From a virus (lineage: Duplodnaviria; Caudoviricetes): a stretch of DNA of 45,030 nucleotides. The stretch covers positions 1-45,030 of IMG/VR virus record IMGVR_UViG_3300044466_000036. One strand, written 5' to 3'. Below are positions 14,292-37,056 of the stretch, piece after piece (the stretch's first letter is position 1; each line of letters begins with the position of its first letter). A program made the translations under genes and the position numbers. The notes under the pieces were generated by a model, which was not told where the DNA came from, did not search any database, and saw nothing but the letters and a program-made list of their open reading frames with translations.

Positions 14292-15404
14292 TTAGTCGGT
14301 CACCCGTTCGAGGGCGGCCGCCGCGTTCGGGTGGCTTAGTTTAAACGCGCGACGCGCGCGGAATTTGACCGCGTAGTTGTCGCTGTCGTCCTGGGCGCGC
14401 GGCGTGTCTGTGCGAGTCTCCGGCCCGCTCCGCTTGCCAACCCTCAAGTATCGTTTGTTGAGAAAGTACAGCAGGTCGGCGCCCGTGGGCGAGCCGCTGA
14501 GCGTGGCCGAGACCTTGCAGCCACGGCTCCACGAGATCGGCACGTTGAACAGCGTGTCGGGCGTGCCTGCGGAGCCCTGGATGAAAATCGGCCTACCCTG
14601 ACCGTCCACTGTGAGCCGGAGCGCGTCGCGCCACCCCGGGGCGGCGATGACGAGCGAGTCCGCGAGTGACCAGTATTTGCCGGTTTCCACCAGTTTGAAT
14701 GTGTGGGAAAGCTTGGCGTAGAGGCTCGCGGTGTCAAACACGCTGGACGCAATGGTGGCGTACAGGTCGTCGTCCCACGTCAGGTAGTTGTCATCCGCCG
14801 TGTACGACACGCCGGAGTCGGTCGTGCGCAACGTCTTGTAGACCGACGTGAACGGAGCGGTGGTGCCGTTTTCCGCGCCAGAAACGCCCAGACAGGCGTT
14901 GTCGAACGTATCCGCGTAGCTGATGGCCCAATCCATCGCTTTGGTGTTAATGGTCTCCATGCGGGAGTCCACGTCGGCGAGATCATCCTCGTCGACCTGG
15001 AACCGGCTGATGAACCGGCGGGCCGTGAGGGTGATTTTGTCGTTTGTGGACGCGTCGTCGGTGTAGGTGGTGCCCACCGTGACGGTCATCCCGGCCGACC
15101 GCGGGATTTCCTTCGTGGCAGTTTTCATCGGGACCGGCGAGGCATACCTTTCGACCGCCGACTCCGACTGGACCCGCAGCACGACGTCGGAGTCGTACTC
15201 GATGGGGATCCAGTTGTCGACGATGGTGGTCGCGTCGCGGCCCCACAGCAGGTAGACGGGTGCGCCGTTGGCGCGGTGGCCGATGATGGTGCCCGGGGTC
15301 GGCGCGTCGGAGTCCACGACGTGCCCGCCGGGCACAGCGATGCTGATCACTGTGACTCCGTTCGCGGTAAGCGGTTGGCGGTTGGCGTGCAGGGGGGTGC
15401 TCAT
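14292..15404 (-). CDS. major capsid protein (HK97 fold)
   Basis: 370 aa; WIPIEY, DGQGRPIF, TLFNVP, KFRARRAF..HPNAAA; position. Confidence 0.88.
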   Translation of the reverse strand: MSTPLHANRQPLTANGVTVISIAVPGGHVVDSDAPTPGTIIGHRANGAPVYLLWGRDATTIVDNWIPIEYDSDVVLRVQSESAVERYASPVPMKTATKEIPRSAGMTVTVGTTYTDDASTNDKITLTARRFISRFQVDEDDLADVDSRMETINTKAMDWAISYADTFDNACLGVSGAENGTTAPFTSVYKTLRTTDSGVSYTADDNYLTWDDDLYATIASSVFDTASLYAKLSHTFKLVETGKYWSLADSLVIAAPGWRDALRLTVDGQGRPIFIQGSAGTPDTLFNVPISWSRGCKVSATLSGSPTGADLLYFLNKRYLRVGKRSGPETRTDTPRAQDDSDNYAVKFRARRAFKLSHPNAAAALERVTD

Positions 15405-15413
15405 CGCGAGCCG

Positions 15414-15548
15414 GGGTCGCCCGTCGCGGGCGTGGCGGTGCTGGGTCGCCCGTCGCGGGCGTGGCGGTGCTGGGTCGCCCGTCGCGGGCGTGGCGGTGCT
15501 GGGTCGCCCGTCGCGGGCGTGGCGGTGCTGGGTCGCCCGTCGCGGGCG
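15414..15548. repeat. 29-bp tandem repeat x4.7 in capsid leader
   Basis: GGGTCGCCCGTCGCGGGCGTGGCGGTGCT at 15414, 15443, 15472, 15501 and partial at 15530; each has a CGCCCG-TCG-CGGGCG hairpin. Confidence 0.95.
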
Positions 15549-15617
15549 GCGGCTGTCCGGCCGATGACCGCGTCGACCTGCGCCCGGTCGCCTGAAACGG
15601 CGGCGTCGACGGGAGCC

Positions 15618-17444
15618 TCAGCCCACCCTGTCTGTGCGGTTCGTCTCGGCGGGGCCGTGGTCTTGTACCACCGGTCGTTCGATCAGCACATCCTTGGAGG
15701 GTGTCTTCCAGACATAGCCAGGGCGGACCACAACAACTGGCGCTCCGTCGCGGATGTCCGGGCCGATTAGCTGGTGGCGGCGCCGATCAAATGCCACCTC
15801 TTCGCCAGCATTGTCGATCGGTTCCAGACGCATTCGCTTCATCCGCGCCCGCACCCGGTGAGTCATCGCGCGGGTTGAGGCATCCTTGGCGGCGAGTTCT
15901 TCAACCTCGATCGCCATCTCGGCCAGCGCTCTCGCGGCGTCCATCTCGGTCTGCTGCAACCGGTTGAGCAGGTCCGGACTCTCCTGCGGTTCGGCCAGCG
16001 CGGCGGCCCTGTCAGCCGCGCTGAGGGGCGCGCCACCTCTGTCCTGGGCCGGGGTGTCACCGGCCGCGCCCAACCGCCGCTCGCCCTGCCACGACGACCC
16101 GTCCAGGATCGCCACACCAGCCGGCCCCGAATTGGCGATCTCCAACGGCGTCGGCCACCCCGCACGATCACCCCGAAACGCCTCCAACCACCCCCGCAAC
16201 CGGTCAGACCCCGGCCCGGACGGGTCAGCCGCCAACGCGCCAGCAACCCGCCCGGCTACATCGCCCACAGCCCCGGGCTTGGTCGAGTCCCAGCCATAAC
16301 CTCTCCGGGCCGCAGCGACGCCACCCTCGTAGGCGGGGCTGATCGTCGCCCGGGTATACCCGGCGTCGGTGAGGACCCGGTCGGCGTTGTCGTCAAACGC
16401 CCGGCCGAAACCGCGCCGCTGCCACTCCGGGGCGATAGCCAGCATGTCGTTGTGGACAGTCCGGGTCGTGGGGTGGAGCAGACGCCTAAACCCGCCCACG
16501 ATGTTGCCGGCGTCGTCGCGGATGTCACCCTCAGCCCGGATGACGACGCCATCGCGGCCGTCGTAGACGCGGGACAGGTCCGGGTCCAGGGTGGCGTGGA
16601 GGCCACCGATGTGGTTGTCGTAGGCGTGGGCGATGACTCGCCGGAGTTGCGGGGCGTGGGTGAGGGGCAGGTCGCGGTCGGGGCCGAGGTCGGGTATGGC
16701 GCTGGCGAGGGCGTCCGCCGTGCCGGCTTCAACCGGGGGTTCCGGCGCGACTGACTGCTTGTACGTCCGCCACGGCTCACCCGTGTCGATGCTGATCAGG
16801 TGGTTGTCCTGGTCGCCGATCCGCAAAGCATCTGCCCGGTGCTGGGCCGTGAGCGTTTTCTGGTTTGTCTCGGGCACGAGGCTGACGTGCGGGTTGCGGT
16901 CCATGCGCTTGAGTACCTGGTCCAGCTCACTGCGGGGGATGTCGCTTAGCGCGGCGCGGAGGTCGGCGATGCTGATGTGGGGGTTGCGGTCGCGTCCCTT
17001 GCGGGCGAGGACGAGTTGCTGGTACGCGGCGCCGACACGATCCTCAACCTCAGCGGCGCGGGTTGGTGTCAAACCTGCCGCTGGCGGCGGGGCGGCGACG
17101 GCCGTGTTGGGGCTGCGGGTCGCGTGGGCTGGGGCGGCGGCCGGGGGCACGTAGCCCGACAGTCTCTCACCGGAGACCATGCCCGCTTCGCCGTCCCCAA
17201 ACTCAACCCAGTGTGCCCCACCCGACCCACCCGACCCACCGCCCACGCCGCTGGCGTCGCGCTCGTCGTGGCCGACGTAGGTGACCGGCCCGCGAGTGCT
17301 GTGGGTGAGCCTGTCCCCGGCCTGCCAGCCGGAGCGAGCCTGGGCGTCGCGGGCCACGTGGCCGGCGTCGGTCACGCTGCGGTCGGGAGCCTCCAGGTCC
17401 GGCACCGACGATACGGCGGGCCCCGCGTCGCCTGGAGCGGTCAC
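15618..17444 (-). CDS. large multidomain protein: wHTH-like + GNAT-like + GrpE-like C-terminal domain
   Basis: IAPEWQRRGFG...ARRGYGW (GNAT motif A); FDRRRHQLIG...VVVVRPGY...LIERPVV (GrpE beta-domain pattern). Confidence 0.7.
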   Translation of the reverse strand: MTAPGDAGPAVSSVPDLEAPDRSVTDAGHVARDAQARSGWQAGDRLTHSTRGPVTYVGHDERDASGVGGGSGGSGGAHWVEFGDGEAGMVSGERLSGYVPPAAAPAHATRSPNTAVAAPPPAAGLTPTRAAEVEDRVGAAYQQLVLARKGRDRNPHISIADLRAALSDIPRSELDQVLKRMDRNPHVSLVPETNQKTLTAQHRADALRIGDQDNHLISIDTGEPWRTYKQSVAPEPPVEAGTADALASAIPDLGPDRDLPLTHAPQLRRVIAHAYDNHIGGLHATLDPDLSRVYDGRDGVVIRAEGDIRDDAGNIVGGFRRLLHPTTRTVHNDMLAIAPEWQRRGFGRAFDDNADRVLTDAGYTRATISPAYEGGVAAARRGYGWDSTKPGAVGDVAGRVAGALAADPSGPGSDRLRGWLEAFRGDRAGWPTPLEIANSGPAGVAILDGSSWQGERRLGAAGDTPAQDRGGAPLSAADRAAALAEPQESPDLLNRLQQTEMDAARALAEMAIEVEELAAKDASTRAMTHRVRARMKRMRLEPIDNAGEEVAFDRRRHQLIGPDIRDGAPVVVVRPGYVWKTPSKDVLIERPVVQDHGPAETNRTDRVG

Positions 17445-20400
17445 GCTTTTGGGCGAGCACCACCAGCCATCGCGTCGATGGCCTTGGCTGCGGCCCGCAG
17501 CGCGCGGTACCCGCGGCTCACCCGCGCCCGCGCCTCGCTGTTGGACATCTGGACCGGCGACCTCTGCACCTCGCCAGCCGCGTGGAAACTGGCGCTGCCC
17601 TCCAGTTCCTCCGCCGCTTGACGCAGCCAGGCCGCCACGCCGGCTGGTGAGTCGCCGTTGCGTAGCCTCATCTCAGCCGTCGAGAGGCGGGTTTCTGCGT
17701 CGTATGCCATGCGGTTCGCCGGGACGCCAGAGAGCTGAAACAGGTCTGGAACGGCGTGTCGACTGAGCCGGACTGCTGCGGTCGGGGCTGCGACCGCTGC
17801 GGTCGCTGGGACGCTAGGGGTACCACCGCCCGGCCCGGCCCGCTCCGCAGCCACAATCGCCGACTCCCACTCATCCATGTGCTGAATGATCTGGGACACC
17901 GTCAGATCCGTGTCATGACCATCCACAATGGCCTTGTCGAGGCCGGCTTTGATCGCCCGGTCACGCAGGCCCCGCGCCTTGGACTGCTCACCCCGGCTCG
18001 CCTTGTCCCACCTCAGCGCAGGGGACGACGTGCGAATAACCGGCGGTTGCCGTCCGGCGGATGCGTCGATCAACGGCTGCTGCGCCGGCTTAGGCGCCGT
18101 ACCCCGCTCGGCGTCACGGATCGCCGCCTCCCACTCATCCATGTGCTGGGCGATCTGGGATGCGGACATGGCCGTGTCATGACCATCCACGTTGGCCTTC
18201 ACCAGTCCGGCCGCCGCCGCCCGGTCCCGCAGCCTCCGGGCACGGGCCTGCTCACCCTTGCCCAGCTTGCCGAAGTCCCCAGCGGGGCTGGTGGTGCGGA
18301 TGACCGGCACGGGTGACGTCCCGGCACCCAGCTCATCACCCCTCGTCGGTGCTGGCGCCGCAGCCTTCTTTGCCGCAACCTTCCGCGCGGGCACACCAGT
18401 AACACTGGCCTCCGACAACCGCGTCGACGACCCATCACCATGCGCCAACACAATCCCAGGCCGCAACACATGCACCTGCGTACCAGCCTCTGGGGCAGTC
18501 CCGACATGCCGGTGAGCCTCCGGGTCATACGGCTGTTTCGACCCAGCCGCCCCCCCAACCGGGCTGAGTTTGTGGGCCCGCACCAGTTTCGCCAACGCCC
18601 GGGTACCGGCCGCCGAGTCGCCATGGTCAAACATGCCGGCAACAGCGTCAAGATCGGCTTTGGTCTTGGTTTTGGCGCCAGACTCCTCTGTGGCGGGGTG
18701 GTGCGGGCTGCCGATGGCACGAATGTGGTCCGCGATGACCGTGGGGTCGGTCTTTTTGGCGCGGAGCTCGGCGAGTTCGGCCGCCGCCGCAGCGTAGGGC
18801 TTCGCGTCGGCGACAGCCTGGTAGCGGTCGCGGGCGGCAGCTCGGCCGCCCGCGACCGCTGGCGCGGCATCCGGGGCGTGCTCCACCAAACCAGCCAGCC
18901 GGGCCCGCCGAGCGGCCTGCTCATCCGGGGATCTGATGTCCGCCACCGTGTCCCGCCCGGTCGCGTCGAGACCCGGCCGATCACCCTCAAACCCCCGGAT
19001 AGCGACGGAGTCAAGGCGACGTCCGGTCGTCGCCTCCACGATCTCTAAACGCAGATCGCTCATGTTGCGGCGCGAAACGCTCGGAACGCTGAGCTCTTTC
19101 GCCAGCGCGACGAGGTCTGTCTTGGCGTATCCCTCTAGTTGTTGGTGTGCCTCTTCGCGGCTGGGCAGCGTCATGAGTCGGGTGGTCATCTCCCCTGGCG
19201 GCAACTTGGCCTTCTTCGCGCCAGCCGCCTTGCCCAGCGCGGGCACAGCCCGGCCAGCCCTGCCCACAGCAGGCAACGTCGAGCCCGCTGGTGCCGCCTG
19301 CGACACAACAGTCACCGCCGCCGCCGGACCGAACATGCCCTTGTCCGTGTGGATCCTGTCCTTCCCCACGGCCGTCACCGTTGCGGACTCATGCCCGTCG
19401 TGGATCACGTCACCGGGTTTGAGCCACCCCAGCCTCGCCCCGGTCAGCTCGTGCCCGACCAGGTCCGGGTACCCCAACCCGGGTTGCGACTCGCCCCGAC
19501 CACGAACCGCAGCGTGATCCAGCCGAGACCCGACAGTGTGCTCAACAATCCGCTCCCGCATGGCCTCTTTCGTGGTCAGGCCACCCCTCGCGCCCGACGC
19601 CTCAGCGACAGCCCGCAACGTTTTGGCGTCCAGACCAGACAACACCTTGTGTGCCTCCTCCCGGGAGGAGGCGGCCCCAAGCTGGTCGGCAACCTGGGCG
19701 GGGTCGACAGCCGCCTTGGCTGGTGCGGCCTTCCGGCCGGCCTTGGTCGGCCCGCTCGCCTCCCGCACCGTCGCCGGCGCCAACCGGAAACCAACCGTGT
19801 GCTCAACAATCCGCTTGCGCAACACCTCCGGCGTGGACGCACCAGCCGTAGACGTACCAGACGCCATCGCCACATCACCCAACTCGCCGAGCGTCAACCC
19901 CTCCAGGTGGGCATTGGCCTCCTCCCGGCTCGCCGATGACTCTAGTTTGGAGACAACGAGCCTTGGGCTGGGCTTCTCGGCCCCGCCTCCCTCACTCGCG
20001 CGGGCTGGGGCGCTTGGCGACGGCGTAGCCGGCTTCGCCTTGCCCTCGCCCCTAGCGAGAGCATCTGCGATGTGCGCCTGCCGTGCCTCCCGGGTTTTGA
20101 CATGCGCAGGCATGCTGATACCCAGCTCACCAGCCAACTCCGCGAGTCTCGGCGCAGTCATACCCGGCTCTTGGTCGAGCTGGGTTATGACCTCGTGCCG
20201 ACTGCCGGCACGCCGAACACGGACCGCCACGTTCGGGACGTCAGGCGCCGCGCCGCGATCACGCTCCCGCCATGCCTCCTCCGAAAAAGGGGCGCGACCA
20301 GGCTCGCGCACACGCGGCGCGGCCTCTCTCTCGCCTGGCTTGGCCCCGCGGAACGACCCCTCCGGGGCCTTTTTCGCTGGGACTTTCGGAGCCGCCTCGG

Positions 20401-20704
20401 GGCGCGGCGGCAGGTCAAACCCCGCATGCCGGCGGGAACCCGCCCGCGCCACCACGGCTGGGCCCGTGCGACCGGCCCGCTGACGGATCTCGTCGGCCGT
20501 CACGGCGTGGACAGCCCGCGCCTTGACCCGCGCGCGAGACGCTCCCCGGGCGGGTTTGGCCCCCGTCGCCCGGCCGATCAGCTGATCAGACACCGCCGAT
20601 AGCCACGACGGCCCGTTGAGTTTGCGCGCCCACTGGCCCCGTTTCCGCCCTGGGGCGGACACGTGCGGGTGGAGCGCCGCCGTGAATTTACGCTTAACGC
20701 CCAT
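17441..20704 (-). CDS. large repetitive multidomain head-region protein
   Basis: 1087 aa; N-terminal FTAALHP..GQW motif; SREEA...IVExTxGxRL repeats; GrpE-like segment; duplicated DGHDT...QHMDEWE unit. Confidence 0.75.
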   Translation of the reverse strand: MGVKRKFTAALHPHVSAPGRKRGQWARKLNGPSWLSAVSDQLIGRATGAKPARGASRARVKARAVHAVTADEIRQRAGRTGPAVVARAGSRRHAGFDLPPRPEAAPKVPAKKAPEGSFRGAKPGEREAAPRVREPGRAPFSEEAWRERDRGAAPDVPNVAVRVRRAGSRHEVITQLDQEPGMTAPRLAELAGELGISMPAHVKTREARQAHIADALARGEGKAKPATPSPSAPARASEGGGAEKPSPRLVVSKLESSASREEANAHLEGLTLGELGDVAMASGTSTAGASTPEVLRKRIVEHTVGFRLAPATVREASGPTKAGRKAAPAKAAVDPAQVADQLGAASSREEAHKVLSGLDAKTLRAVAEASGARGGLTTKEAMRERIVEHTVGSRLDHAAVRGRGESQPGLGYPDLVGHELTGARLGWLKPGDVIHDGHESATVTAVGKDRIHTDKGMFGPAAAVTVVSQAAPAGSTLPAVGRAGRAVPALGKAAGAKKAKLPPGEMTTRLMTLPSREEAHQQLEGYAKTDLVALAKELSVPSVSRRNMSDLRLEIVEATTGRRLDSVAIRGFEGDRPGLDATGRDTVADIRSPDEQAARRARLAGLVEHAPDAAPAVAGGRAAARDRYQAVADAKPYAAAAAELAELRAKKTDPTVIADHIRAIGSPHHPATEESGAKTKTKADLDAVAGMFDHGDSAAGTRALAKLVRAHKLSPVGGAAGSKQPYDPEAHRHVGTAPEAGTQVHVLRPGIVLAHGDGSSTRLSEASVTGVPARKVAAKKAAAPAPTRGDELGAGTSPVPVIRTTSPAGDFGKLGKGEQARARRLRDRAAAAGLVKANVDGHDTAMSASQIAQHMDEWEAAIRDAERGTAPKPAQQPLIDASAGRQPPVIRTSSPALRWDKASRGEQSKARGLRDRAIKAGLDKAIVDGHDTDLTVSQIIQHMDEWESAIVAAERAGPGGGTPSVPATAAVAAPTAAVRLSRHAVPDLFQLSGVPANRMAYDAETRLSTAEMRLRNGDSPAGVAAWLRQAAEELEGSASFHAAGEVQRSPVQMSNSEARARVSRGYRALRAAAKAIDAMAGGARPKA

Positions 20705-20741
20705 GACCAGCCCCCCGATCTCACTCTAATGTAGACTTGAC

Positions 20742-21551
20742 TCAGGCCCTGCCGCTGAGCTGGTCATCAACCTGATGCAGCCACGTTTTTTGCCCGCCGC
20801 CGCTCTTCGTGCGGCGGGCGCCCCCGTCAATCTGAGGCGCGCCACGACGCGCCTCAGGTGGCCTGGAACCCCGGAACCACTCCGGGAAATCCGCCTTGAT
20901 ACTCGCGACCTGCTCCGCGATACCCGTCACGTTGCCCTCATCGTCGACATCGACGTCATCGAGATCGAGGAGCCTCATCACCCGCTCCTGGCCGCGACCA
21001 GACCACCCGGCCTCAGCGAGCGCGGCGGCCGTCGCGGTCCGGGCCAGCGCCGGTTTGTACCTGCCCTCAACTCGCGCCGCCGCCCGCTCGGCCGCCCTCG
21101 CGACAGCCCGGTCGGTGGCGCTCCCGGAGTCGGTTGAGGCGCCGCCGTCGATCAGATCCTCAAGCGCCCGCTGGCCGTCCTCTGTGGATAGGTCGTAGCC
21201 TTTTACGGCGAGGGCATTGCGTAGCAACCGCAACCGTTTGTGCTCGGCGTTGTTGCGTTTCGTGCCGGCCTGGAGTCGTTCCCACTGATCCCGCGTCGGC
21301 GGCACATACTCACCGGCGGCATCCTGGTCGTCGTCCTCCGACTGGTCGTCCTCCGACTCATCGTCGTCCTCCGACTCATCGTCCTCATCACTCTCGTCGT
21401 CGTCGCCCCCGTCCTCCCCGTCCTCCTCGTCCTCGTCCTCGTCCTCGGCGCCGTCATCAGGCTCGACGTACCCGGCCCAGTCCGACCCCCACAACAGGTA
21501 GATAGGCGTGCCATCGGCACGGCAACCAACAACAGGCAACACAGTTGTCAT
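20742..21551 (-). CDS. capsid scaffolding protein
   Basis: Acidic D/E tract, coiled coil, IKADFPEWF motif; start estimated at MTTVLP. Confidence 0.8.
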   Translation of the reverse strand: MTTVLPVVGCRADGTPIYLLWGSDWAGYVEPDDGAEDEDEDEEDGEDGGDDDESDEDDESEDDDESEDDQSEDDDQDAAGEYVPPTRDQWERLQAGTKRNNAEHKRLRLLRNALAVKGYDLSTEDGQRALEDLIDGGASTDSGSATDRAVARAAERAAARVEGRYKPALARTATAAALAEAGWSGRGQERVMRLLDLDDVDVDDEGNVTGIAEQVASIKADFPEWFRGSRPPEARRGAPQIDGGARRTKSGGGQKTWLHQVDDQLSGRA

Positions 21552-21604
21552 CACGACATGGACCCTCTCGATCCGGCAGTGCATGGTGGGGTCATCACGA
21601 CCCG

Positions 21605-22672
21605 TCAACGTCTCGACCTGCGCCAGGCCCCCCGGCCGGCCGCCACTTTCCGGGCCGCCCTAAACTTGACCGTCTCCGGCAAACCCGTCGTACCCGGCGG
21701 CGACGCCAAAAGCCGTGCCGCGGCCCGCATCAACGCCGCGCCCGAGTGATACGCCGAGTCGCCGCGAAACACAGACCTCTGAGCCTCACGCATCAACACG
21801 GCAGGCATCTCTGGGGCAATCTGCGGCCCGATACCGTAGTACGGGTCCGTGCCGTACCACGGCGTCACCCGGCAACGGCAATGCGGATGCAACGGTGGCC
21901 CAAAAATCGGGTCCTTGACCGTTGACGTCCCCGGGTCACCAAACGTCAGACCCGCCGGAAAGGACTCCCCCGGCCGGGCCACCAACCCGCTATACGCCAA
22001 ACACGTGAGGCACGCGTCCCTCTCAGCCAGGAACAGCACCGGCACACCGTCATGCTCCGCGCGGGCGCGGGCTCCCTCACTAACGGCTTGGTTAGACGCC
22101 CACCGGGCGGTCTCGTCAACCCGCCGCACCGGGCGGCCAGCCAAACCCACCAGCGACGACGCGTCACGCCACGATCGCGACGGGCCGGTATTGACCAGCC
22201 GCAACGCCTGGTCAATATCAGCCCGGACAGCCAGACCCAAACGGTCAACCACAGCCAACAACTCAGGCGACGGCACCAGCCCAGGCAGCGGCGACCCGCC
22301 CGGCTGACGCGACCCGTGCCGCAAACCCGCCTCAATCGCCCGCCGCAGTGCCTCAAACACCGCCGGCAACTCCGACAACAACCCGGTCGCCAGCGCGGTG
22401 ACAACCCGCCGCACCATGGTGCGGAGCGAGTCCCCCGCCTCATCAGGTACCTCGCTGCGCAGGCTCCCGACGATGCGCGTGTACCCGGCGGCCACGTCCC
22501 GCATCGCGGCCTCCAGCGCGGACCGCATCGCCGCCGCGCCCCGCGCGGCCCGCTCCTCCAACCGCCGGGCCTGCCGCTCGGCGGCAACTATCGCCGCGAT
22601 CTCCGCCGGGGACAACGCCGACGGGTCACTGCCCGCGAGGACGCTGTCGAGACGGTCCATCGGGTCAGGCAC
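21605..22672 (-). CDS. MuF-like minor head protein
   Basis: ACLTC...PPLHPHCRC motif; follows portal. Confidence 0.85.
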   Translation of the reverse strand: MPDPMDRLDSVLAGSDPSALSPAEIAAIVAAERQARRLEERAARGAAAMRSALEAAMRDVAAGYTRIVGSLRSEVPDEAGDSLRTMVRRVVTALATGLLSELPAVFEALRRAIEAGLRHGSRQPGGSPLPGLVPSPELLAVVDRLGLAVRADIDQALRLVNTGPSRSWRDASSLVGLAGRPVRRVDETARWASNQAVSEGARARAEHDGVPVLFLAERDACLTCLAYSGLVARPGESFPAGLTFGDPGTSTVKDPIFGPPLHPHCRCRVTPWYGTDPYYGIGPQIAPEMPAVLMREAQRSVFRGDSAYHSGAALMRAAARLLASPPGTTGLPETVKFRAARKVAAGRGAWRRSRR

Positions 22673-24305
22673 CAGCCGGCTCCGTCACGGGTTGACCACC
22701 GAGGAGATCCGATACCAGCGACGCTGTCTGCTCCTCGTTGACGATGCCCATCGCCGCCGCCGCCCCGATCGCCTGCAACGCGTTCGCCACGCCGGTCAGG
22801 AGTTCGACGCGGCGGGACATGGCCGCGTTTTGTGCCTCCCCGCTGCGGAGCCAGTCGTCGACCTGGTCGCGGGTGTAGCCGGCCTCGATGAGTGCCTGGT
22901 CGCGCGGCATCCCGGCCCCGATTTTGGCCTGGACGATGGTCCACGCCTCGGAGTCGGATGCCTGCTCGGCCGGTTTCCAGCCGACGCGGACCTCAACGTT
23001 TTTGTGGCCCAGCAGCCGGAGAGCGTACTCGAGGGCGTCCTCCCAGACGGCGTCGAGTGACGCTTGCAGGTGCTCAACCTTGTTGACGGTCGGCGCGTCA
23101 GCGGCGCGCAACGCCTCGCCGGACGGGGTTTGCGCGAAATTTGAGCCGAACCGGTATAGGGGTGTTTCGGTGAGTTCGCCCATCGCCTGCACAAACCGGT
23201 CAAACGGCCGCATAAACGTGTCCGATGGGGCCCCAGCCCACTCCCCAGCAGACTTGGCACCCCACAACCGCCACACCGCAGACGCCTCAGCCGACAGCTG
23301 CGACGTGTTGCCGCTACCCTCCGGGTCGTCATCATCGTCGGGGTGGTTGGGGTCCAGCAGGTTACCCATCGGCTGATCCTGCCCCGGATCCATCAGGATG
23401 TATCGCTGGGGGAAACTCTGGTAGTCCACGGAGACGGCCTGCGCGAGCACCAGTTTGTTGATCAACTGTTGCGGCCCGTAGGCGTGCAGGTGCTCGGGTT
23501 TGCCGTACGGGCGGCCGTTGCGGAAATGAAAAACAGGCATCCCGTAGTCGTGTTTGATGACCGCAGGGTCGCCGTCGCCCGTGTACGGCTGCCACGACTC
23601 GGCGCTACCCAAAACCATTTTGCCGGGCCTGGATATCCACCGCTCAACCCGGTCGTCGTAGTACATGGTCGCCCTGGTCCGCGACGTTTTGCCGCCCCGG
23701 CCGTCAGGCTCGTCGTACGTCCAGGATTTTATGCAGGCCCGCATTTTGAGGGGGTCCTCGTCGTCGTAGACGGCGCGGACTGTTGCTGCGGTGTTGACCC
23801 GGATATCAACGGCAGCGATTTTGTCGTTGATATCGGTGCGGGGCCAGACGATGAGGTAGGCGTCGCCGTCGCGGCACAGTGCGAGGTGGAGGGAGTCCGA
23901 CTCGGCGTCTAGCTGGTTGGCCCGCCACAGGTCGTCCAACGCTTTCTGCGCACCGGTTTTGTCGGGGGTTTTGGTGTCAGCCGCTTTTGGCGCCTTGCCG
24001 TCGCCCTTGCCCTGAGTTTCGTCTGGCTCGTTGTCGGGCTCGTCGGGCTCGGCGACGTCGTCGCTGGCGATGGCGACTGAGGTGATCTCCAGCCGGTGCG
24101 CGACAGTGTCGACCACGAGGTGAGCGTAGTTAAACTCCTCGATTTTGCTGACCCCTGCGCGGCGGAGCAGCATCCGGATTTTCTCGCTGGCGTAGATCTC
24201 GCCGACGCGGCCAGTGTACATGTCCTCGGCGGTGGCGTATGCGGGCCGGGCGTTTTCGAGCTCGGTCCACGTGTCGGCGAGGGCATCGCGGTGATCGTCA
24301 GCCAT
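22665..24305 (-). CDS. portal protein (SPP1 gp6-like)
   Basis: NYAHLVVD, DGDAYLIVW, PVFHFRN, SFPQRY, SGEALR motifs; follows terminase. Confidence 0.92.
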   Translation of the reverse strand: MADDHRDALADTWTELENARPAYATAEDMYTGRVGEIYASEKIRMLLRRAGVSKIEEFNYAHLVVDTVAHRLEITSVAIASDDVAEPDEPDNEPDETQGKGDGKAPKAADTKTPDKTGAQKALDDLWRANQLDAESDSLHLALCRDGDAYLIVWPRTDINDKIAAVDIRVNTAATVRAVYDDEDPLKMRACIKSWTYDEPDGRGGKTSRTRATMYYDDRVERWISRPGKMVLGSAESWQPYTGDGDPAVIKHDYGMPVFHFRNGRPYGKPEHLHAYGPQQLINKLVLAQAVSVDYQSFPQRYILMDPGQDQPMGNLLDPNHPDDDDDPEGSGNTSQLSAEASAVWRLWGAKSAGEWAGAPSDTFMRPFDRFVQAMGELTETPLYRFGSNFAQTPSGEALRAADAPTVNKVEHLQASLDAVWEDALEYALRLLGHKNVEVRVGWKPAEQASDSEAWTIVQAKIGAGMPRDQALIEAGYTRDQVDDWLRSGEAQNAAMSRRVELLTGVANALQAIGAAAAMGIVNEEQTASLVSDLLGGQPVTEPAGA

Positions 24306-24359
24306 ACCCCCCCCTGTTTGCCTACAGTCCACATTGGATATCGATGCGGATAAACAGCA

Positions 24360-26024
24360 TCAGCGGGGGAACTCGGTCCGTGACCGACCAGCCGACGGCG
24401 GGGTCAACGCCCGGTTGAGACAACTCACCGTCGCGTCCACCATGTCGTCATAACGGCCACGCGGAAACGCCACCATCTGCTCCTCCAGGCGCACCAAACG
24501 CCGCGCGTGCTTGACCCGCCCACGCTGGTAGAGGTTCAACGCCGCCGCCGCCCTGACCTCTTTCTTGGCGGACTGGTGTACCTCTATCAGCCTCACCGGC
24601 AGGTGGTGCAGCACGGCCCGCCAGTTTTCGCCACCCTGGTTGGTTTCCACCAACACGGCGCGGATGAGCGGAAAGCGGACCAGCAACCCCAGCACGTGGG
24701 TGCGCAGGGGGTCCCCGGTGAGGCGGATCTCCCACGCCTCCTCGACGACGCACCGGGACGGGAGTCGTACGGGTCTGCCCCGGGCGTCGGTGCTGGTCTG
24801 GCCGGGCGCGTACCCGATGATGGCGATGCCGGTGTAGTCGCTCGTGGTTTTGGTGGTGACTGCCGGGTCGATCGAGAGGATCTGGCCGGTCACGCCTTCT
24901 AGCGGGCCGTAACGAAAATCGGCGTCGTTCCAGTAACCACCGTCGGTGCCCATTGGGTCATTTAGGAAGTTTTTCTTGAATGACCTGGTATGTCTGATTT
25001 CGTCGAGGTACGACATCGCCCACTTAGCCGGCCACGTCGATCTCTCAACGCCATCATCACCCACAACGATCGGCGGGTAATGACACGCCCGAAACCGCTC
25101 CTCCCCGATCCACGGCTCAGGCACCTCACCGCTAGCGGACCGCACCAACTGGTGCACCACACTGCCCGCCATCGTCACCGTGCCCACCAGCACAACCCGC
25201 GCCCGGTCGTTCAACGGCAAGATCGCGTCCTGAATGGTCCGCAACCGTTTTTCGGCCTGGGCCGCCGAGTATGAGGACTCGTCGTCCTCGACGTCGTCCA
25301 GTAACAGAGCGTCGGGCCTGCGGGCGCCGACTTTGAGGCCCAGCACCGCGCTGTCGATACCGCGCGCGGCGAAAACAAACCCGGCCCTCGTGTACAACAT
25401 CGCCCGGTTGTCGGCGATCGTGACGCCACTCGGCCGCCGGGCTGCCGTACACAGGTCGGGGTAGTCCTCGCGGAGCAGGTGGTTAGTGTCCAGTTCGTCT
25501 TTCAGCGTCGACAGGTGCGTCTCAGCCTGCGTCGCAGAATCCGAAAACGCGGCGACGAACCGTGTGTAGCCGTGGGCTGCGGCCCAGCACGGGACCAGGA
25601 GGTACCACATCGTCGACTTACCGCTTGCCCGCGGCGCGATGTATGCCCGGCGCCACTGCCTGGGCTCAGTGACCGGCTCCGCCCACTCCAGGGCCTGCCG
25701 GAACCAGTCGAGGTGTGGGTCGGCGAACGTTGTCCGGCCGTCCGCGTCGCGGAGGTGCCGGGCCAGGTAGGTAAGCGCGAAAAGCATCGGGTCGCGAGCT
25801 GTCAGCGCCCGCCGCCGAGCCGGTGTGCCTAACCGCCCGCCGAACGACGCGACGTACGCCTCGGGGTCGAACGTCTCAATCGTGACCGCCGAGCCCACCC
25901 ACATCGGCGGCCCAGCGTCAGCAACCTCACGCTCTGCCGCGCCGGCCTGGACGCGGGTGAGTAGGGCCTGCCAGGAGAGGAGGTCAGACGGGGACAGGCC
26001 AGGCGTCTGAGTGGACGTCACCAC
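24360..26024 (-). CDS. terL: terminase large subunit
   Basis: Walker A APRASGKST, Walker B LLLDDVED, nuclease SIDPA and DDMVDA. Confidence 0.95.
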   Translation of the reverse strand: MVTSTQTPGLSPSDLLSWQALLTRVQAGAAEREVADAGPPMWVGSAVTIETFDPEAYVASFGGRLGTPARRRALTARDPMLFALTYLARHLRDADGRTTFADPHLDWFRQALEWAEPVTEPRQWRRAYIAPRASGKSTMWYLLVPCWAAAHGYTRFVAAFSDSATQAETHLSTLKDELDTNHLLREDYPDLCTAARRPSGVTIADNRAMLYTRAGFVFAARGIDSAVLGLKVGARRPDALLLDDVEDDESSYSAAQAEKRLRTIQDAILPLNDRARVVLVGTVTMAGSVVHQLVRSASGEVPEPWIGEERFRACHYPPIVVGDDGVERSTWPAKWAMSYLDEIRHTRSFKKNFLNDPMGTDGGYWNDADFRYGPLEGVTGQILSIDPAVTTKTTSDYTGIAIIGYAPGQTSTDARGRPVRLPSRCVVEEAWEIRLTGDPLRTHVLGLLVRFPLIRAVLVETNQGGENWRAVLHHLPVRLIEVHQSAKKEVRAAAALNLYQRGRVKHARRLVRLEEQMVAFPRGRYDDMVDATVSCLNRALTPPSAGRSRTEFPR

Positions 26025-26430
26025 CCCGCAACTCCGCCTCCGTGACAGCGGCGCCGTTGACGCGCCACAACCTGACGTCCGCCGCCATCTCGGGCCGCGA
26101 TCCGGCCAGTGACACGACCAGCCAAAACGGGATCCCCGCGGCTACGGCTATGGCGACGTCGGCCGGTGACAGGACTGCCGGCCCGGCGGGGTGGGAGTGG
26201 TACAGGACGAGGGGGTCCTCGCCGGCCGCGTCCATGGCGGTGTACGCGGTGAGGGTCTCGCTCGGGTCCAGCCGAAACCCGCCCTGGGGGTCTAGGGCCG
26301 TGTTGGTCATGGGTATCAGTCGGGTTGTTTCGCCGCGTCTGGCTATGAACCCGCATGCCTCGTCGGGGTGGTCCTGGGAGCAGCGGTTGAGGATCTCGTT
26401 GAGGATCGCAGTGGGCAGGGTCAGCGGCAC
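25984..26430 (-). CDS. JAB/MPN (Mov34) metalloprotease
   Basis: EACG and YHSHP-x6-SPAD JAMM motif intact; GTG start estimated at 26430. Confidence 0.88.
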   Translation of the reverse strand: MPLTLPTAILNEILNRCSQDHPDEACGFIARRGETTRLIPMTNTALDPQGGFRLDPSETLTAYTAMDAAGEDPLVLYHSHPAGPAVLSPADVAIAVAAGIPFWLVVSLAGSRPEMAADVRLWRVNGAAVTEAELRGGDVHSDAWPVPV

Positions 26431-27049: not shown

Positions 27050-27321
27050 GGAACACCCCCACGTGCGTGGGGCGGACAGTCGGAGTGCTGCTGACTCGGT
27101 CATAGCTCACGGAACACCCCCACGTGCGTGGGGCGGACACGAGCCGGGGAGGGAAATGGGGGCTAGAGGCAGGAACACCCCCACGTGCGTGGGGCGGACA
27201 TTCGCTGGCGCTGTAGCTCTGCCTCCGCGCCCGGAACACCCCCACGTGCGTGGGGCGGACGCCGTCCTGACCGCGCGCTCAGATAGGGCTGTCGGAACAC
27301 CCCCACGTGCGTGGGGCGGAC
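27050..27321 (-). CRISPR. type I-E-like CRISPR mini-array, 5 repeats / 4 spacers, no cas genes
   Basis: Identical 28-bp repeat GTCCGCCCCACGCACGTGGGGGTGTTCC (minus) at 27050, 27111, 27172, 27233, 27294; four unique 33-bp spacers; 61-bp period. Confidence 0.97.
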
Positions 27322-29225: not shown

Positions 29226-29624
29226 CATCGCGAGTAGCTCGGCCAGTGGATCTTACCCACCGACCCCGTCGATGTTGAGACGCCCGTGGTATTCCGAAGC
29301 CGACGCTTCACGGTCGACGGCAGGTACGTACAGCTCGCTACCTCGTACCTGCCGACGGACCTGGCCCGGGGGACCCGCATCATGCATACCGACACTGGCC
29401 CAGGCGGCATCTACGCCGTCTTCACGGAAACCGGCCACGCTCCCGCCATGTACCGCGAAGAGGTCAGGTGCCGGGCGCCGAGCCCAGACGAGGTCAACCG
29501 TCTCGGCGTTCCCGCCAGCGCCTCGGTTATCGAAATCATCCGTCAGGCGTTCCAGACCGACGGCCGGTGCATCGAGGTTAACCGGATGGTGCCCGTAAGC
29601 CCTACTTCTGAGACGGTCTCCTGA
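29226..29624 (+). pseudogene. GntR/KorA-like regulator fragment (UTRA domain only)
   Basis: VQLATSYLP...DTGPGGIY...IEVNRMV UTRA pattern; no HTH domain; 3' end runs into res-like region; left boundary approximate. Confidence 0.7.
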
Positions 29625-29760
29625 TCATGGCCTGGATGACTGGTTTTGGGTCGGAAACCTGTCTCAAAAAACCTGCCCATTGCCACCCTATTGCAGCTGG
29701 ATATATGAGCTAAGTTATGAGACAGTCGTTAGGTCAGTGAGACAGGACCGAGATAGGAGA
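29600..29760. promoter_or_regulatory. res-like site upstream of resolvase
   Basis: Repeated/inverted TGAGACAG half-sites (CTGTCTCA 29659, TGAGACAG 29718 and 29738, TGAGACGG 29609). Confidence 0.6.
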
Positions 29761-29767
29761 CAGGAAC

Positions 29768-30328
29768 ATGGCCACCATCGGCTACGCGCGAGTCAGCTCC
29801 ACCGGCCAGAACCTGGACCGGCAAACCGACGCGCTGACCACCGCGGGATGCGAGCGGGTTTTCACCGAGAAAATGTCGGGCGCAAGGCGCGACCGCCCCA
29901 CCTTGGCCGCGATGCTCGACTTCGCCCGGGCCGGCGACGTCATCGTGGTCACGGAACTGGCCCGGCTCGGCCGGTCCCTGCTCGACCTCATCGCCACCGT
30001 GAACACCCTCGGCGAGCGCGGGATCGGACTCCGCAGCCTAAAAGAAAACATCGACACCACCACCCCCGTCGGCACGCTGCTCTTCCACGTCATGGGCGCG
30101 CTCGCCGAGTTCGAGCGCCGCGCGATCAACGAGCGCGCGGCCGAGGGCCGTGCCGCCGCCAAGGCACGCGGCAAGACCGGCGGCCGCCCCAAGGTCGAGG
30201 ACACCAAAATCAACGCGGCGAAGGCGCTCGTAGCGGGCGGCATGTCCGCCAGCGCGGCAGCGAAGGCGACGGGCGTGGGGCGGGCGACGCTGTACCGCCA
30301 CGGCATCGGCACCGTGGAGGCGGCCTAG
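29768..30328 (+). CDS. serine recombinase (resolvase/invertase)
   Basis: IGYARVSS, RLGRS, ALAEFER, GGRP, C-terminal HTH GVGRATLYR. Confidence 0.95.
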   Translation: MATIGYARVSSTGQNLDRQTDALTTAGCERVFTEKMSGARRDRPTLAAMLDFARAGDVIVVTELARLGRSLLDLIATVNTLGERGIGLRSLKENIDTTTPVGTLLFHVMGALAEFERRAINERAAEGRAAAKARGKTGGRPKVEDTKINAAKALVAGGMSASAAAKATGVGRATLYRHGIGTVEAA

Positions 30329-32903: not shown

Positions 32904-33900
32904 ATGACCGACACCGACCCCTCCACACTCGCCACCCTCACCGGACCCGCCACGGTCGCCACCCGCGACCAACTCGCCGCCTTCACCGACGGGTGGCTCG
33001 CCAACCGTCGGCTCAGCGACCACACCCGCGACGCCTACCGCCGCGACGTCGGCACATGGCTCGACTGGTGTGCCGGCCGTGACCTCGACCCGCTCACCGC
33101 GACATTCATTCACGTCAACGCCTTCGCCCGCGAGCTGGAGACCACCCCGAACCCGCGCACTGGCCGGCCGCTCAGCGTGGCCACGGTCGGCCGGCAGCTC
33201 TCCGGTCTATCCAGCTGGTACGGCTTCCTGGCCAAGGTCGGCATGGCCGCGAATCCGGTGGGCGGCGTGGACCGCCCGCACGTCGAACGCGACCACTCCG
33301 CCACGGTGGGCCTCGCGCAGCCCGAGGTCGACGCGCTCCTCGACGCTGCTGCGGCGCAGACTGGCGCGACCAGAGCCCGGAACCTGGCCATGATCGCCGT
33401 CCTAGTCGACCTGGGCCTCCGGGTGGGCGAGCTGGTCGGCCTCGACCTAGCGGACCTGGGCCGCGAGCGTGGCCACGCCGTCGTCCGCTTCACCGGCAAG
33501 GGAGGTGTCCAGCGGCGCCGCGCGCTCACCCCGGCCGCTGCGGCGGCGCTCGACGAATACCGGGCCAGCGTGGCTGCGGTTGGTGACGCTGACCAGGACG
33601 GGGCGCTGTTCGTCACCTCAACCGGCGGCAGGGTTGACCGGCACGCCGTGTTCCGCCTGGTCCGCCGGCTCGCTGCCGCCGCCGGGATACCGGCCGCTGC
33701 GGTGCTGTCGCCTCACTCGCTGCGCCACGCGTTCGCCACTGCGGCCCGCGAGGAGGGCGTACCGCTGGAGGATGTGCAGGACGCGATGGGTCACGCCGAC
33801 CCGCGCACCACCCGCCGCTACGACCGCGACCGGCACAACCTGGACCGCGATCCGTCGTACGCGATCTGGACCGCACGGGCCCGCCGGTCCGGAAAGGCGG
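32904..33900 (+). CDS. tyrosine recombinase (XerC/D-like); true 3' end about 33900
   Basis: GLRVGEL, GKGG, HSLRH, MGHAD, TTRRY catalytic residues; ORF track extension to 35003 is read-through across a G/C homopolymer. Confidence 0.92.
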
Positions 33901-33941
33901 GGGGGGGGGGGGGCGCGCGCCCCCCCCCCCCCCCCCCCGCC
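33896..33941. terminator. G15/C19 hairpin between convergent genes (sequence probably unreliable)
   Basis: GGC-G15-CGCGCG-C19-GCC. Confidence 0.45.
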
Positions 33942-33947
33942 TCGTCC

Positions 33948-34730
33948 TCATTCCTCCCACCGCATGTACGGCGCCGGGTCCAGGACCAGGCCGCTGTCGG
34001 TGGGCGAAATATACCAAAAATGGTGGCGAAACCAGTCCTTGAGCGCCTCCTCCCCGTAGCGCTCGATGATCTCCCCGTAGGCCCGCCAGTGCGCGCCCTG
34101 GTCGACTGGAAGGTCGGCCGCTTTGTACGCCTCAGACCCATTAAGGGCCTTACGCACCATTTGTTCCGCCGAGCGATAGGGAAAATGCCGCACCTCCAAC
34201 AGGCCCTCCACCCGGGGCCCGCCGGACGGCAGCGTCACCCCGTGGTTGCCCTGGTGGATCACCGCCCCGTCCTCCCATCGCAGCGCCATTTTGGGCAGCG
34301 CCCCTGGGGCGTCCTGCCGCCACACCATCGACCGAAACGGGTCCGGGCCGGCGACGTCCAGCGCGGTGCACAGGTGGTTGTACAGCGCCGCCACAGCCTG
34401 GCCGCGCAGGCCCGCGAGAACATCGCGGATACGCCCGTGGGGGCTGACCCACAGCTCGTCCGCGTCAAACGGCACCACCCATGCGGCACCCGCCTCAGCG
34501 GCCAGCCCGGCCAGCCGACTCATTTTGGCGGACTGGAAGTAGGCCGGGTCGGGGTCGTCCAGCACGGTGAGCGGCAACTCGCCGCCGAGACGATCCAGGA
34601 TCTCCCGAGTGCCGTCCATCGAGTTGTTGTCTGCCACGATCAGGTGATCGACCTCGTCTGCCATGTGCCGCAGGGTGCCCTCGATGACGTCGGCCTCGTC
34701 ACGGACCATCGACACGCCATACGTGGCCAT
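33948..34730 (-). CDS. glycosyltransferase family 2
   Basis: SMVRDEAD, ADNNSMDGT, PFDADE motifs; TGATG-coupled start. Confidence 0.9.
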   Translation of the reverse strand: MATYGVSMVRDEADVIEGTLRHMADEVDHLIVADNNSMDGTREILDRLGGELPLTVLDDPDPAYFQSAKMSRLAGLAAEAGAAWVVPFDADELWVSPHGRIRDVLAGLRGQAVAALYNHLCTALDVAGPDPFRSMVWRQDAPGALPKMALRWEDGAVIHQGNHGVTLPSGGPRVEGLLEVRHFPYRSAEQMVRKALNGSEAYKAADLPVDQGAHWRAYGEIIERYGEEALKDWFRHHFWYISPTDSGLVLDPAPYMRWEE

Positions 34731-35425
34731 CAGTACCCCGTCCCGGCCCGCGTGTGTCCTATGTGCTCCACCCACACACCCGAGTGGCGTGCGCCCCAGA
34801 GCCCGAACCGCACCTGGTCGCCAGGGATGCCGTCCCATGCCATGCCCTCACGGAGCAGTCGGTGGGTCAGCTGGCCCTCCGACTGCGGCACGACCGGCCA
34901 GCCTGCGGCGCACAGCCCGCGACGGTACAGGCCCGGATTGGTCGTGAGGTACAGCTGGTGCTCCAGCCACACCCGGCCCAGGTCGTCCCGGTGCTCCTCG
35001 TAGGCGTCGGGGTGCTGCTCTACCACGCCGCCCGCAGCGTGCTCGTCCGCGTTCCACGCCTGCCGCCGCAGGGCGAGTTGGGCCAGCTGAGGGTGCGCGT
35101 CGAGCACGTCCGCCATCGCGGCGAGGTCCACGGGGCGCTGAAAAACGAAATCATCTTCGACGCCGAATACAAGCCGCTCACACCCTTGGGCCAAGTGCGT
35201 CCACGCTGAGGCGTATGCCCCGCCAAACCCGCTGCGGGCCACGGTCATGACCAGGTCGTACCCCGGGTAGGTCTCCCGCAGCCAGCGCCGGTAGTCGATG
35301 TCGCCGGAGTCATCATGGATGACGCGGCGGGTGATCGGGCCGGTGACCACCCGCTCCAGTGACTCGATAGCCCTGGGGAGACAGTCCCTGCGGCCGTCCG
35401 TCATGACCAGCAGCGCGATGCTCAC
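34730..35425 (-). CDS. glycosyltransferase (GT-A fold)
   Basis: IHDDSGD, GVEDDF, VEHIG motifs; GTGA-coupled start. Confidence 0.85.
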   Translation of the reverse strand: MSIALLVMTDGRRDCLPRAIESLERVVTGPITRRVIHDDSGDIDYRRWLRETYPGYDLVMTVARSGFGGAYASAWTHLAQGCERLVFGVEDDFVFQRPVDLAAMADVLDAHPQLAQLALRRQAWNADEHAAGGVVEQHPDAYEEHRDDLGRVWLEHQLYLTTNPGLYRRGLCAAGWPVVPQSEGQLTHRLLREGMAWDGIPGDQVRFGLWGARHSGVWVEHIGHTRAGTGY

Positions 35426-36036
35426 CGCGCCACCCCTGCTGCGGGCAGGACCGACCGGAGGATGTTGCGGGTCACCCGCACCCTCTCTTCGTCGGTCGCG
35501 CCGAAATTGCGGGAGTCCGGGCGCACGTGCGCCCGGTACACGGCATCTGGGACCGACGCGAACGACGCCCCCGCCAGGTGGCAGCGCAGCCATAGCGACC
35601 AGTCCTCGTAGATCGGCTCACCCCACCACCCGCCCGCCTTGCGGATGGTGGCGACCCGGGCGCACGCCCCGACGCACACCCAGTTGCCCTCGGTCAGGCA
35701 TGCCGGGCCGCACAGGTGGCTGTGCCCGGCGACGCGGGGCATCCTGGCCCGGCCCTGCCCGTTGGTCACGTAGCGGAGTGCGGGTACCCGTATGTCCGCC
35801 GTGCTGGTGGTCATGGCCTCAACATAGCCGGGCTCCAGCTCATCATCGGCGTCCAGGTGGATGACCCACTCGGTGTCGACCATGCTGTCGGCCTCGTTGC
35901 GGGCGTCGGCGAGGGTCGAGCCGCGTACGTGCACGACCGGCAGGCCCAGTGCCCGCGCGGACGGGATTGCCCTCTCCTCAGCGAGCCGAACCCACTCAGG
36001 CCCGCCGAATGTGGCTACCGCAACGGTCGCATCCAC
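35422..36036 (-). CDS. glycosyltransferase family 2
   Basis: ADARN, HLDADD, GGW, YEDWSLWLR motifs. Confidence 0.88.
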   Translation of the reverse strand: MDATVAVATFGGPEWVRLAEERAIPSARALGLPVVHVRGSTLADARNEADSMVDTEWVIHLDADDELEPGYVEAMTTSTADIRVPALRYVTNGQGRARMPRVAGHSHLCGPACLTEGNWVCVGACARVATIRKAGGWWGEPIYEDWSLWLRCHLAGASFASVPDAVYRAHVRPDSRNFGATDEERVRVTRNILRSVLPAAGVAR

Positions 36037-36695
36037 AGCCGCCTCCTCGCCTGGTAGAGGGGGGCACCCGCGTCCATCCGGCCCGGCTGTGCGAGGTACA
36101 ACTCATCCCAGGGCGCCTTGTCGTGGTCCGGGTGCAGGTGCTCCACGTGGGAGTCGAGTGCCATAGCCCAGGCACAGCGGTGTTTTGCTGTGCCCACGAG
36201 CTCGTCATCGACGTACTCGTGGGGGTAGCCCTCGTGGAGGATCTCGCCCGGCCGGTCGATGGCGCCGTGCTGGTCGGCGTAGGCGCGGGTGACGAGACTG
36301 TGGGTGGCGTGCTCGCCCGCCACGACCCTGGGCGACCCGAGGTCGTTGGTGCCTACCACGCCGATGCCAGGGGCCAGCTTCGCGGCGGCGGCCTCTAGCC
36401 AGCCCGGGTGGAAGTGCAGGTCATCCGCGCCCAAAAAGAGCAGCTCCTCGGTGGTGGCCCGGCACCCGGCGTTGATCTTGCGGGCGTAGTCGCCGACCGG
36501 CTCCCGGGCCACCATGATGTGCTCGCACCCGGCCGCGTCTACGGCGGCGAGTACCTGGTCATCCCCGGGCGACAGGCAAAACAGCACCCGCGCGTCACAC
36601 GTCGCGCGGATCGACGCCAGCAGTGGCGCGGCCCGGTGGGGCCGGCCCAGCATCGGCACAAGGATGACCAGTCTCACGCGTCGGATCTTACCCAC
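36015..36695 (-). CDS. glycosyltransferase family 2
   Basis: ILVPMLGRP, KINAG, LGADD, YVDDE, VEHLHP motifs. Confidence 0.85.
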   Translation of the reverse strand: MGKIRRVRLVILVPMLGRPHRAAPLLASIRATCDARVLFCLSPGDDQVLAAVDAAGCEHIMVAREPVGDYARKINAGCRATTEELLFLGADDLHFHPGWLEAAAAKLAPGIGVVGTNDLGSPRVVAGEHATHSLVTRAYADQHGAIDRPGEILHEGYPHEYVDDELVGTAKHRCAWAMALDSHVEHLHPDHDKAPWDELYLAQPGRMDAGAPLYQARRRLWMRPLR

Positions 36696-37056
36696 GGCGC
36701 CGGCGAGTCCGACCTGACAGCGCCACTACCCGACAACGGCGGTGAGGCCGAGGCCCAGGACGTGCACAAGGCCGGCGAGCGGGCCACCTCACGCAAGGCC
36801 GACGTGGACGCCGGCTGGAGATGTGGGTCCTCCAGCCCCGGCAGCCTGCCGCCGGAGGGAGCGAAGGGAGGAGACCCCTAGCGGGTCGCTCCCTCGGTGC
36901 TCCCTCCGGCGCACCGCCCCTACCCGATCTTGACGAAGGGAGCGGTCACGGGCTCATGGCCGCGCGGACGAGAGCTACCAGATCCTCGGCGGGTAGCCCC
37001 GCGAGCCGCGCCCGCCGGGCCGCCATGAGTGCCAGCTGGGCGATCAGGCATTCCTG

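Follow-up and report, generated by a model that had tools for sequence, protein, structure and literature searches.

We examined a 45,030-base stretch of DNA, hereafter the window, which is a single virus record (IMG/VR record IMGVR_UViG_3300044466_000036, Caudoviricetes; 58% complete). We suggest that the scaffolding and major capsid proteins of this actinobacterial phage share a removable N-terminal leader, formed by a hairpin and a Gly residue, and that on balance this leader is likely cut after Leu-Trp-Gly (LWG) during head assembly by the phage's own JAB protease. The leader is translated, has been conserved in a large family of capsids and scaffolds, is cleanly lost in some lineages, and co-varies within phages. 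The JAB gene is intact, and in a sample of 38 records it occurs only together with leader-bearing capsids. Cleavage and binding of the leader by JAB in the window phage are proposed from sequence and by analogy with characterized systems.

The scaffold and capsid leaders in the window

The earlier note on this DNA had described a motif ending in YLLWG near the N-termini of both proteins. The two motifs are present where they had been placed, in frame on the minus strand, at residues I40-G55 of the capsid protein (15287-15240) and V26-G41 of the scaffolding protein (21533-21486). The assigned identities hold as well, since the scaffold gene (20742-21608, minus strand) matches PF06810 (E 8.6e-10) and the capsid gene (14292-15404, minus strand) matches phrog_10 (E 8.9e-12) and TIGR01554 (above its cut-off) and shows an HK97 fold by structure model and Foldseek. 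The likely capsid start is GTG at 15350 (V19), with GGAG upstream, which gives a leader of about 37 residues. The scaffold likely starts at 21554 or 21551, with GAGAGG upstream, and has an acidic tract after the leader.

A hidden Markov model (HMM), which the earlier note had proposed as a check, was built from the capsid leaders of 98 relatives, excluding that of the window, and was searched against all six frames of the window. Only the scaffold (E 5.3e-6) and capsid (E 8.6e-6) sites were matched, and the next best hit had an E-value of 0.62. The two 16-residue motifs have 10 identical residues, but the codons differ at 5 of these 10 and the DNA identity is 32/48, indicating conservation at the protein level and no fresh duplication. 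There is no in-frame ATG, GTG or TTG within capsid residues 31-74 or scaffold residues 40-80. With no common start codon separating the motif from the conserved body, the leader is translated and cannot be skipped through such a codon, which contradicts the possibility, raised beforehand, that translation starts downstream of the motif.

The capsid leader is predicted as a β-hairpin with strands at residues 40-43 and 49-51 (pLDDT ~67), followed by the invariant Gly55. What is shared throughout the family is this hairpin plus Gly, and not YLLWG as first thought, which is the variant of one phage; among 120 capsid homologs and 92 reference leaders, Trp precedes the Gly in 1 and 0, respectively.

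Conservation and loss of the leader among relatives

The search for capsid homologs gave 394, of which the 120 best were analysed. An N-terminal extension is present in 106 of them, while the other 14 all begin M-ASTDII, exactly at the junction between leader and body. The junction was placed in 104 of the 106 extended proteins, where its first Gly never varies and is followed by Gly in 66, Ala in 30, Ser in 6 and Arg in 2, the window included. The family leader reads IG-x-R-x-[DN]G-x-P-I-Y-x-x-A-G-[GAS] (consensus IIGYRKNGRPIYLIAGG), and the hairpin upstream of the junction Gly corresponds to I-G-x-R-x-D-G-x-P-I-Y.

When the leader profile, A3, was searched against 1.84 billion cluster representatives, 281 matches were obtained, of which the best 150 were taken, yielding 149 new proteins. 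Single leaders were found in 92 of these proteins, and the pattern fits 91 of them (GG 81, GA 9, GS 1), with 90 leaders ending between residues 23 and 52. A Pfam scan of 79 A3 matches assigned 21 to Phage_scaffold and 1 to Phage_capsid. In five actinomycete genomes, where 150 of the 315-416 candidates per genome were scored, A3 gave four strong matches, all of them phage head genes. A sequence search of the PDB with the capsid and leader profiles gave no match. About 55 of the 149 proteins (large and unannotated, within P0121-P0269) contain the hairpin half, G-x-I-I-G-H-T-x-S-G-K-P-I-Y, as 2-7 internal repeats with no GG end, and the hairpin repeated in this way may serve for binding or for targeting to the capsid.

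The pairing of scaffold and capsid leaders is seen in many relatives. Cognate leaders share 3.56 of 10 variable positions, compared with 1.84 ± 0.3 for shuffled pairs (p 5e-5; 16 de-duplicated pairs of 21, window excluded, with a shuffle that ignores relatedness). Streptomyces phage Nesbitt has the leader on its scaffold and a capsid without one, Micromonospora phage pMLP1 has it on a scaffold-like open reading frame (ORF), and a leaderless capsid together with a hairpin-leader scaffold was found at 10 loci, after the misread locus L003 had been removed. A second type of scaffold leader, ending F-S-P-F/V-x-Y-A-D-G-G, was observed at 43 loci (L039, L111, Streptomyces-type), where the capsids are leader-bearing or leaderless.

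An intact JAB metalloprotease beside the terminase gene

The absence of an HK97-type protease from the window, as the earlier note had stated, stands for PF04586, but the window does hold a protease candidate. A stand-alone JAB/JAMM zinc metalloprotease of 148 amino acids is encoded from GTG at 26430 (25984-26430, minus strand; PF14464, E 8.9e-18), and we regard it as the candidate head-maturation protease. Its open frame reaches 26529, and the gene overlaps the start of terL, the terminase large subunit gene directly behind it (24360-26024, minus strand; phrog_38, E 1.3e-67). The catalytic motif E...H-x-H...S-x-x-D is intact (E24, H78, H80, S88 and D91) and invariant in 13 phage JABs, and the JAMM motif is kept in all 35 JABs examined. 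The structure model (pLDDT 89.9) shows an MPN fold, with 2kks and JAMM1 (5ld9/5lda) as the nearest folds, and comparison with 5ld9 gave an E-value of 1.7e-9 and TM-scores of 0.78/0.89. Assignment to the desampylases (NF041370) was rejected, as the window JAB scored 61 bits against a curated cut-off of 130.

A Pfam scan of 116 window ORFs revealed no other protease family. Prp (PF04327) was found in none of five records, namely the window (58% complete), its closest relative G001 and three actinomycete genomes, and control searches were positive in 3 of 14. The S78 prohead protease was likewise found in none of five records, the window included, four of which are at least 98% complete. Among the scanned ORFs there was no Pfam match to a C39 double-glycine peptidase, for which no family-directed search was made, and no ubiquitin-like, E1, E2 or NlpC match; Rfam gave no match. 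A tblastn search of the window JAB against isolated phages gave 528 records; the 60 listed comprised Dryad gp95 and, for the rest, lambda-K tail proteins, and Patience was not one of them. Residues 48-54 of the window JAB (Ins-1) read PQGGFRL, where host JABs are bulkier in the alignments, and we speculate from this sequence that the segment might make room for the leader Trp.

Co-occurrence of JAB and the leader

We compared the presence of JAB and of the capsid leader in 38 capsid-selected records, comprising viral records at least 72% complete, 5 prophages, 11 isolated phages and the window, with shorter fragments excluded. JAB presence was determined by whole-record PF14464 searches. L001, which the pattern had missed, was set leader-positive by eye, OscarSo, Wyvern and MiniFlayer were scored as leaderless partly from annotated starts, and MrGordo (JN020140) is one JAB-negative record. 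The leader was accompanied by JAB in 13 records and was found without it in 12, whereas the 13 leaderless records all lacked JAB (Fisher p 0.001). The JAB-positive label needs 3 changes on the capsid tree, and the JAB tree repeats several sister pairs of the capsid tree (G000+G001, G009+G013, G018+G023+G026). As a reverse test, 17 records were fetched by JAB and 2 that were already known were excluded; 12 of the remaining 15 have the leader (E<=5.3e-8), 10 of them twice, and the records without a leader match are 23%, 31% and 68% complete.

JAB lies directly before terL in the window and in G001, 1-2 kb before terL in L037, L119, L124 and L127, and between the scaffold and capsid genes in the Rhizomonospora prophage L042. 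Based on the position directly upstream of terL and the tracking of the leader across relatives, the phage enzyme is the leading candidate. The leaders of JAB-positive records did not differ significantly in divergence from the others over the last 8 residues (p 0.20), and the difference over the full 17 residues (p 0.03) is confounded by insertion variants and clades.

Patience and related phages

Mycobacteriophage Patience (gp19, gp21 and gp23), whose head module includes a JAB and which has a related leader, offers a comparison in which mature termini are available from published mass spectrometry and cryo-electron microscopy (cryo-EM). Its gp19, annotated as 'protease', belongs to PF14464 and was detected in late infection and not in particles (PMC4324244). 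Its gp21 reads PIFGG|T35, with no other Gly-Thr among the first 80 residues, and 11 N-terminal peptides of gp21 start at Thr35 and 1 at the preceding Gly, the supplement numbering this Thr as 56 (PMC4324244). The Patience capsid reads PIFGG|T20, and its cryo-EM model starts at Thr20, while the Adjutor capsid model starts at Asn28, two residues after LSG (PMC11965321). In the excerpts of PMC4324244, no 17-residue tryptic peptide across the uncut GG junction of the Patience capsid is reported, and neither JAB, the shared leader nor the responsible enzyme is named.

Six further Patience-like phages (Adjutor, Sadboi, MontyDev, Kurnik, Tedro and Triscuit) have co-varying leaders and a JAB match, that of Tedro being below the cut-off. 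Most of their leaders read hydrophobic-x-hydrophobic-x-G followed by x-D/E, as in LQG-RD of Tedro, LSG-HD of Adjutor and IVG-AD of Kurnik, and the Triscuit capsid has Ala in place of Gly. LWG-RD and LWG-SD of the window fit this form. GenBank labels of such JABs include 'protease', 'metalloprotease' and 'capsid maturation protease', and the entries for Delton, WaldoWhy and Madruga annotate the homologous gene as a maturation protease of the capsid or head. The Patience group thus resembles the window in having a JAB gene and co-varying Gly-ended leaders on scaffold and capsid, with the mature Patience proteins starting right after Gly-Gly, but it differs in its capsid family and in its shorter leaders without the full hairpin.

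Proposed mechanism and comparison with known systems

In five actinomycete genomes, the host JABs adjoin a ubiquitin-like ORF ending ILPAVAGG and form one group in the JAB tree; we take this pair to be Mec/CysO. Four of the five ubiquitin-like ORFs have residues beyond GG, which must be cut off. BilC, a bacterial JAB, cleaves a linear peptide bond that follows Gly (Val-Ala-Gly|Ala) and removes ubiquitin-like (Ubl) conjugates (10.1101/2023.09.26.559546).

The end of the phage leader appears to resemble the C-terminal tail of ubiquitin-like sulfur carriers such as the host ILPAVAGG, so that JAB may read the leader as such a tail and cut the peptide bond after Gly. In this scheme, JAB would bind the last strand of the leader like a ubiquitin-like tail and then cleave after Gly. 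The predicted cuts are G55|R56 in the capsid and G41|S42 in the scaffold, with D57 and D43 as alternative starts if the Patience register holds; a cut just after LWG is most plausible because this is the sole Gly at the junction. Phages with their own JAB could let the tag drift, and those without it, many of them Streptomyces phages, likely rely on the host JAB, just as 80alpha uses host Prp. For assembly, the leader of the scaffold is probably more important than that of the capsid, as in 80alpha, and docking through the hairpin before its removal is possible, given the internal repeats elsewhere.

A close parallel is staphylococcal phage 80alpha, whose capsid and scaffold leaders are cut by the host protease Prp (C108), and phage Cp-1 has its own Prp-clan protease (PMC5744158, PMC9405229). 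In 80alpha, the capsid leader and cleavage are dispensable and the intact scaffold leader is essential (PMC5744158). Both systems have a short N-terminal leader common to unrelated scaffold and capsid proteins and no HK97-type protease; in both, a host enzyme or a phage copy would act, and some lineages can do without the capsid leader but retain a leader on the scaffold. However, the window leader is a hairpin ending in Gly and not LNLQxF|A (L-x-L-Q-x-F|A; PMC9405229, Table 1), the candidate enzyme is a zinc JAMM protease and not a Cys-His protease, and the host look-alike is a ubiquitin-like C-terminus and not L27. The earlier note had proposed a cleavable leader by analogy with 80alpha, and this part is supported by the leaderless homologs that start at the junction, the co-variation and Patience, whereas the motif YLLWG was too narrow and a phage protease was not foreseen.

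Unlike HK97-type phages, the window lacks an S78 protease and has a separate scaffold gene, and its capsid extension is 37-55 residues of low-confidence coil plus hairpin, compared with a helical delta domain of ~100 residues. BilC, Pyrococcus JAMM1 and Mec/CysO share with the window JAB the fold and the catalytic motif, and cut after Gly, including linear peptide bonds for BilC, but the putative substrate in the window, a hairpin leader of 16 residues carried by virion proteins, is not a β-grasp domain. In the lambda-type tail assembly protein K, a JAB domain is combined with NlpC/P60, with gpI as the Ubl, and this phage JAB domain is likewise proposed to process a virion assembly protein at Gly (PMC1779556). 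The window JAB differs from it in being a stand-alone protein of 148 amino acids with no NlpC/P60 or Ubl partner, located before head genes and not among tail tip genes.

Weighing the alternatives

Several observations weigh against cleavage by the phage's own JAB. First, the JAB-positive records fall into about 3 groups of the capsid tree, so few independent events lie behind the association, and the JAB-selected records belong to the same capsid family and include near-copies. Second, 12 of the 25 leader-bearing records (Yara, Gibson, Wentworth, G005 and others) have no JAB, as is also the case for Nesbitt and pMLP1, and a phage JAB is therefore not required. Third, over 10 kb separates JAB from the head genes in many relatives, and 10 of 17 loci have no head gene in their flanks. 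Fourth, relatedness is uncontrolled in the shuffle behind the leader co-variation. Finally, the Patience leader matches A3 weakly (E 0.003, in a 4-protein file) and its capsid is of a different family, so that Patience is a cousin and not a homolog and its support is by analogy. Patience is moreover mostly cut after the second Gly, and since Arg and Ser occupy this position at the window junctions (W-G-R and W-G-S), either the cut must move by one residue or the capsid may escape cleavage. The Patience paper itself sets capsid cleavage at 82/83 from one peptide (PMC4324244); we set this site aside because of that single peptide, because residues 25-98 form a single 74-residue tryptic peptide, and because the cryo-EM model holds residues from Thr20.

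The alternative that survives best, although we consider it unlikely, is that the leader is cut by a host enzyme, either the JAB beside the CysO-like carrier or another, and that the phage JAB acts elsewhere, for example in removing Bil/CBASS ubiquitin-like tags from phage proteins. The leader-bearing records without JAB and the distance of many JAB genes from the head genes are consistent with this, as are the actinomycete JAB whose partner ends VAGG and the removal of Ubl conjugates by BilC (10.1101/2023.09.26.559546). It does not readily account for the lack of JAB in all 13 leaderless-capsid records, for the several phages whose JAB gene adjoins terL or lies between the scaffold and capsid genes, or for the agreement of sister pairs between the two trees. 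The W-G-R and W-G-S tags of the window are also far from the host VAGG tail, and 7 of 7 Patience-like phages examined combine a JAB match (below the cut-off in Tedro) with co-varying non-GG leaders.

It is also rather improbable that the leader remains uncut in the window phage, with the hairpin docking scaffold with capsid or targeting them to a chaperone and the Gly being structural. The internal repeats without a GG end in about 55 of 149 proteins and the Arg that follows Gly in the window capsid point in this direction, and in 80alpha cleavage is dispensable while an intact scaffold leader is essential (PMC5744158). Against it, homologs without the leader begin precisely at the junction, the corresponding place is where Patience proteins are processed, G[GAS] terminates 91 of 92 single N-terminal leaders, and the leader is linked to an intact protease; a docking role does not preclude a later cut. 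Chance similarity, or a recent functionless duplication of a gene 5' end, is very improbable even for a motif of just 16 residues in a GC-rich genome, given profile E-values of ~1e-5 at both sites and nowhere else in the window, the synonymous divergence of the copies and the same pairing in many relatives.

Other features of the window

The head module lies on the minus strand in the order terL, portal, MuF-like protein, scaffold, two large inserted ORFs and capsid. The SPP1-type portal protein (22665-24332, minus strand) and the MuF-like minor head protein (21605-22672, minus strand) are without the leader motif. Between the scaffold and capsid genes lie two large ORFs of 1087 and 608 amino acids (15618-20704, minus strand), neither of which has a leader motif or a protease family match. 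The 608-residue protein shows a weak GNAT match, and the two ORFs have in common a short, similar segment with a GrpE-like appearance by eye. In G001, too, the scaffold and capsid genes are set apart, by about 12 kb. Directly upstream of the capsid gene, a perfect 29-base tandem repeat of 4.7 copies (15414-15548) may be a regulatory element that has been amplified.

A CRISPR-like mini-array (27050-27321, minus strand) immediately precedes the late genes and comprises five identical 28-base repeats and four 33-base spacers, with an AT-rich stretch upstream. Its repeats presumably resemble type I-E repeats. The scanned window ORFs include no cas gene, and the spacers have no full match within the window, the best covering 20-27 of 33 bases. 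The regions 29286-30328 and 32904-38064 contain a UTRA-domain fragment, a serine resolvase, a tyrosine integrase and three glycosyltransferase genes.

Implications for phage head maturation

More broadly, we see about an even chance that a deubiquitinase-type JAMM zinc protease is the head-maturation enzyme of a wide group of actinobacterial phages. The leaders would then be minimal mimics of ubiquitin-like tails. Some phages would have them cut by the sulfur-carrier JAB of the host, and others by a private phage JAB that co-evolves and that here would be rewired to a Trp-Gly tag. The maturation scheme is known in kind, and the JAB enzyme class is likely new for head maturation. The literature searched, whose coverage left out most subscription papers, described neither a JAB as a head-maturation protease nor this leader, and the excerpts of PMC4351075 (Cluster O) and 10.1101/2022.09.09.507160 (an actinophage dendrogram) contained nothing bearing on the leader.

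Cultured phages exist for both arrangements, Dryad and Patience with JAB and Yara and Gibson without it, which makes the proposal cheap to test, and the short enzyme-tag pairs that drift together are a natural set for studies of JAMM specificity. If the proposal is true, it would explain the N-terminal processing of Patience and give a function to many phage 'metalloprotease' genes, and the actinomycete JAB would be a host factor possibly required by phages that lack a JAB. A ubiquitin-system metalloprotease would thereby join the serine and cysteine proteases that mature the heads of tailed phages.

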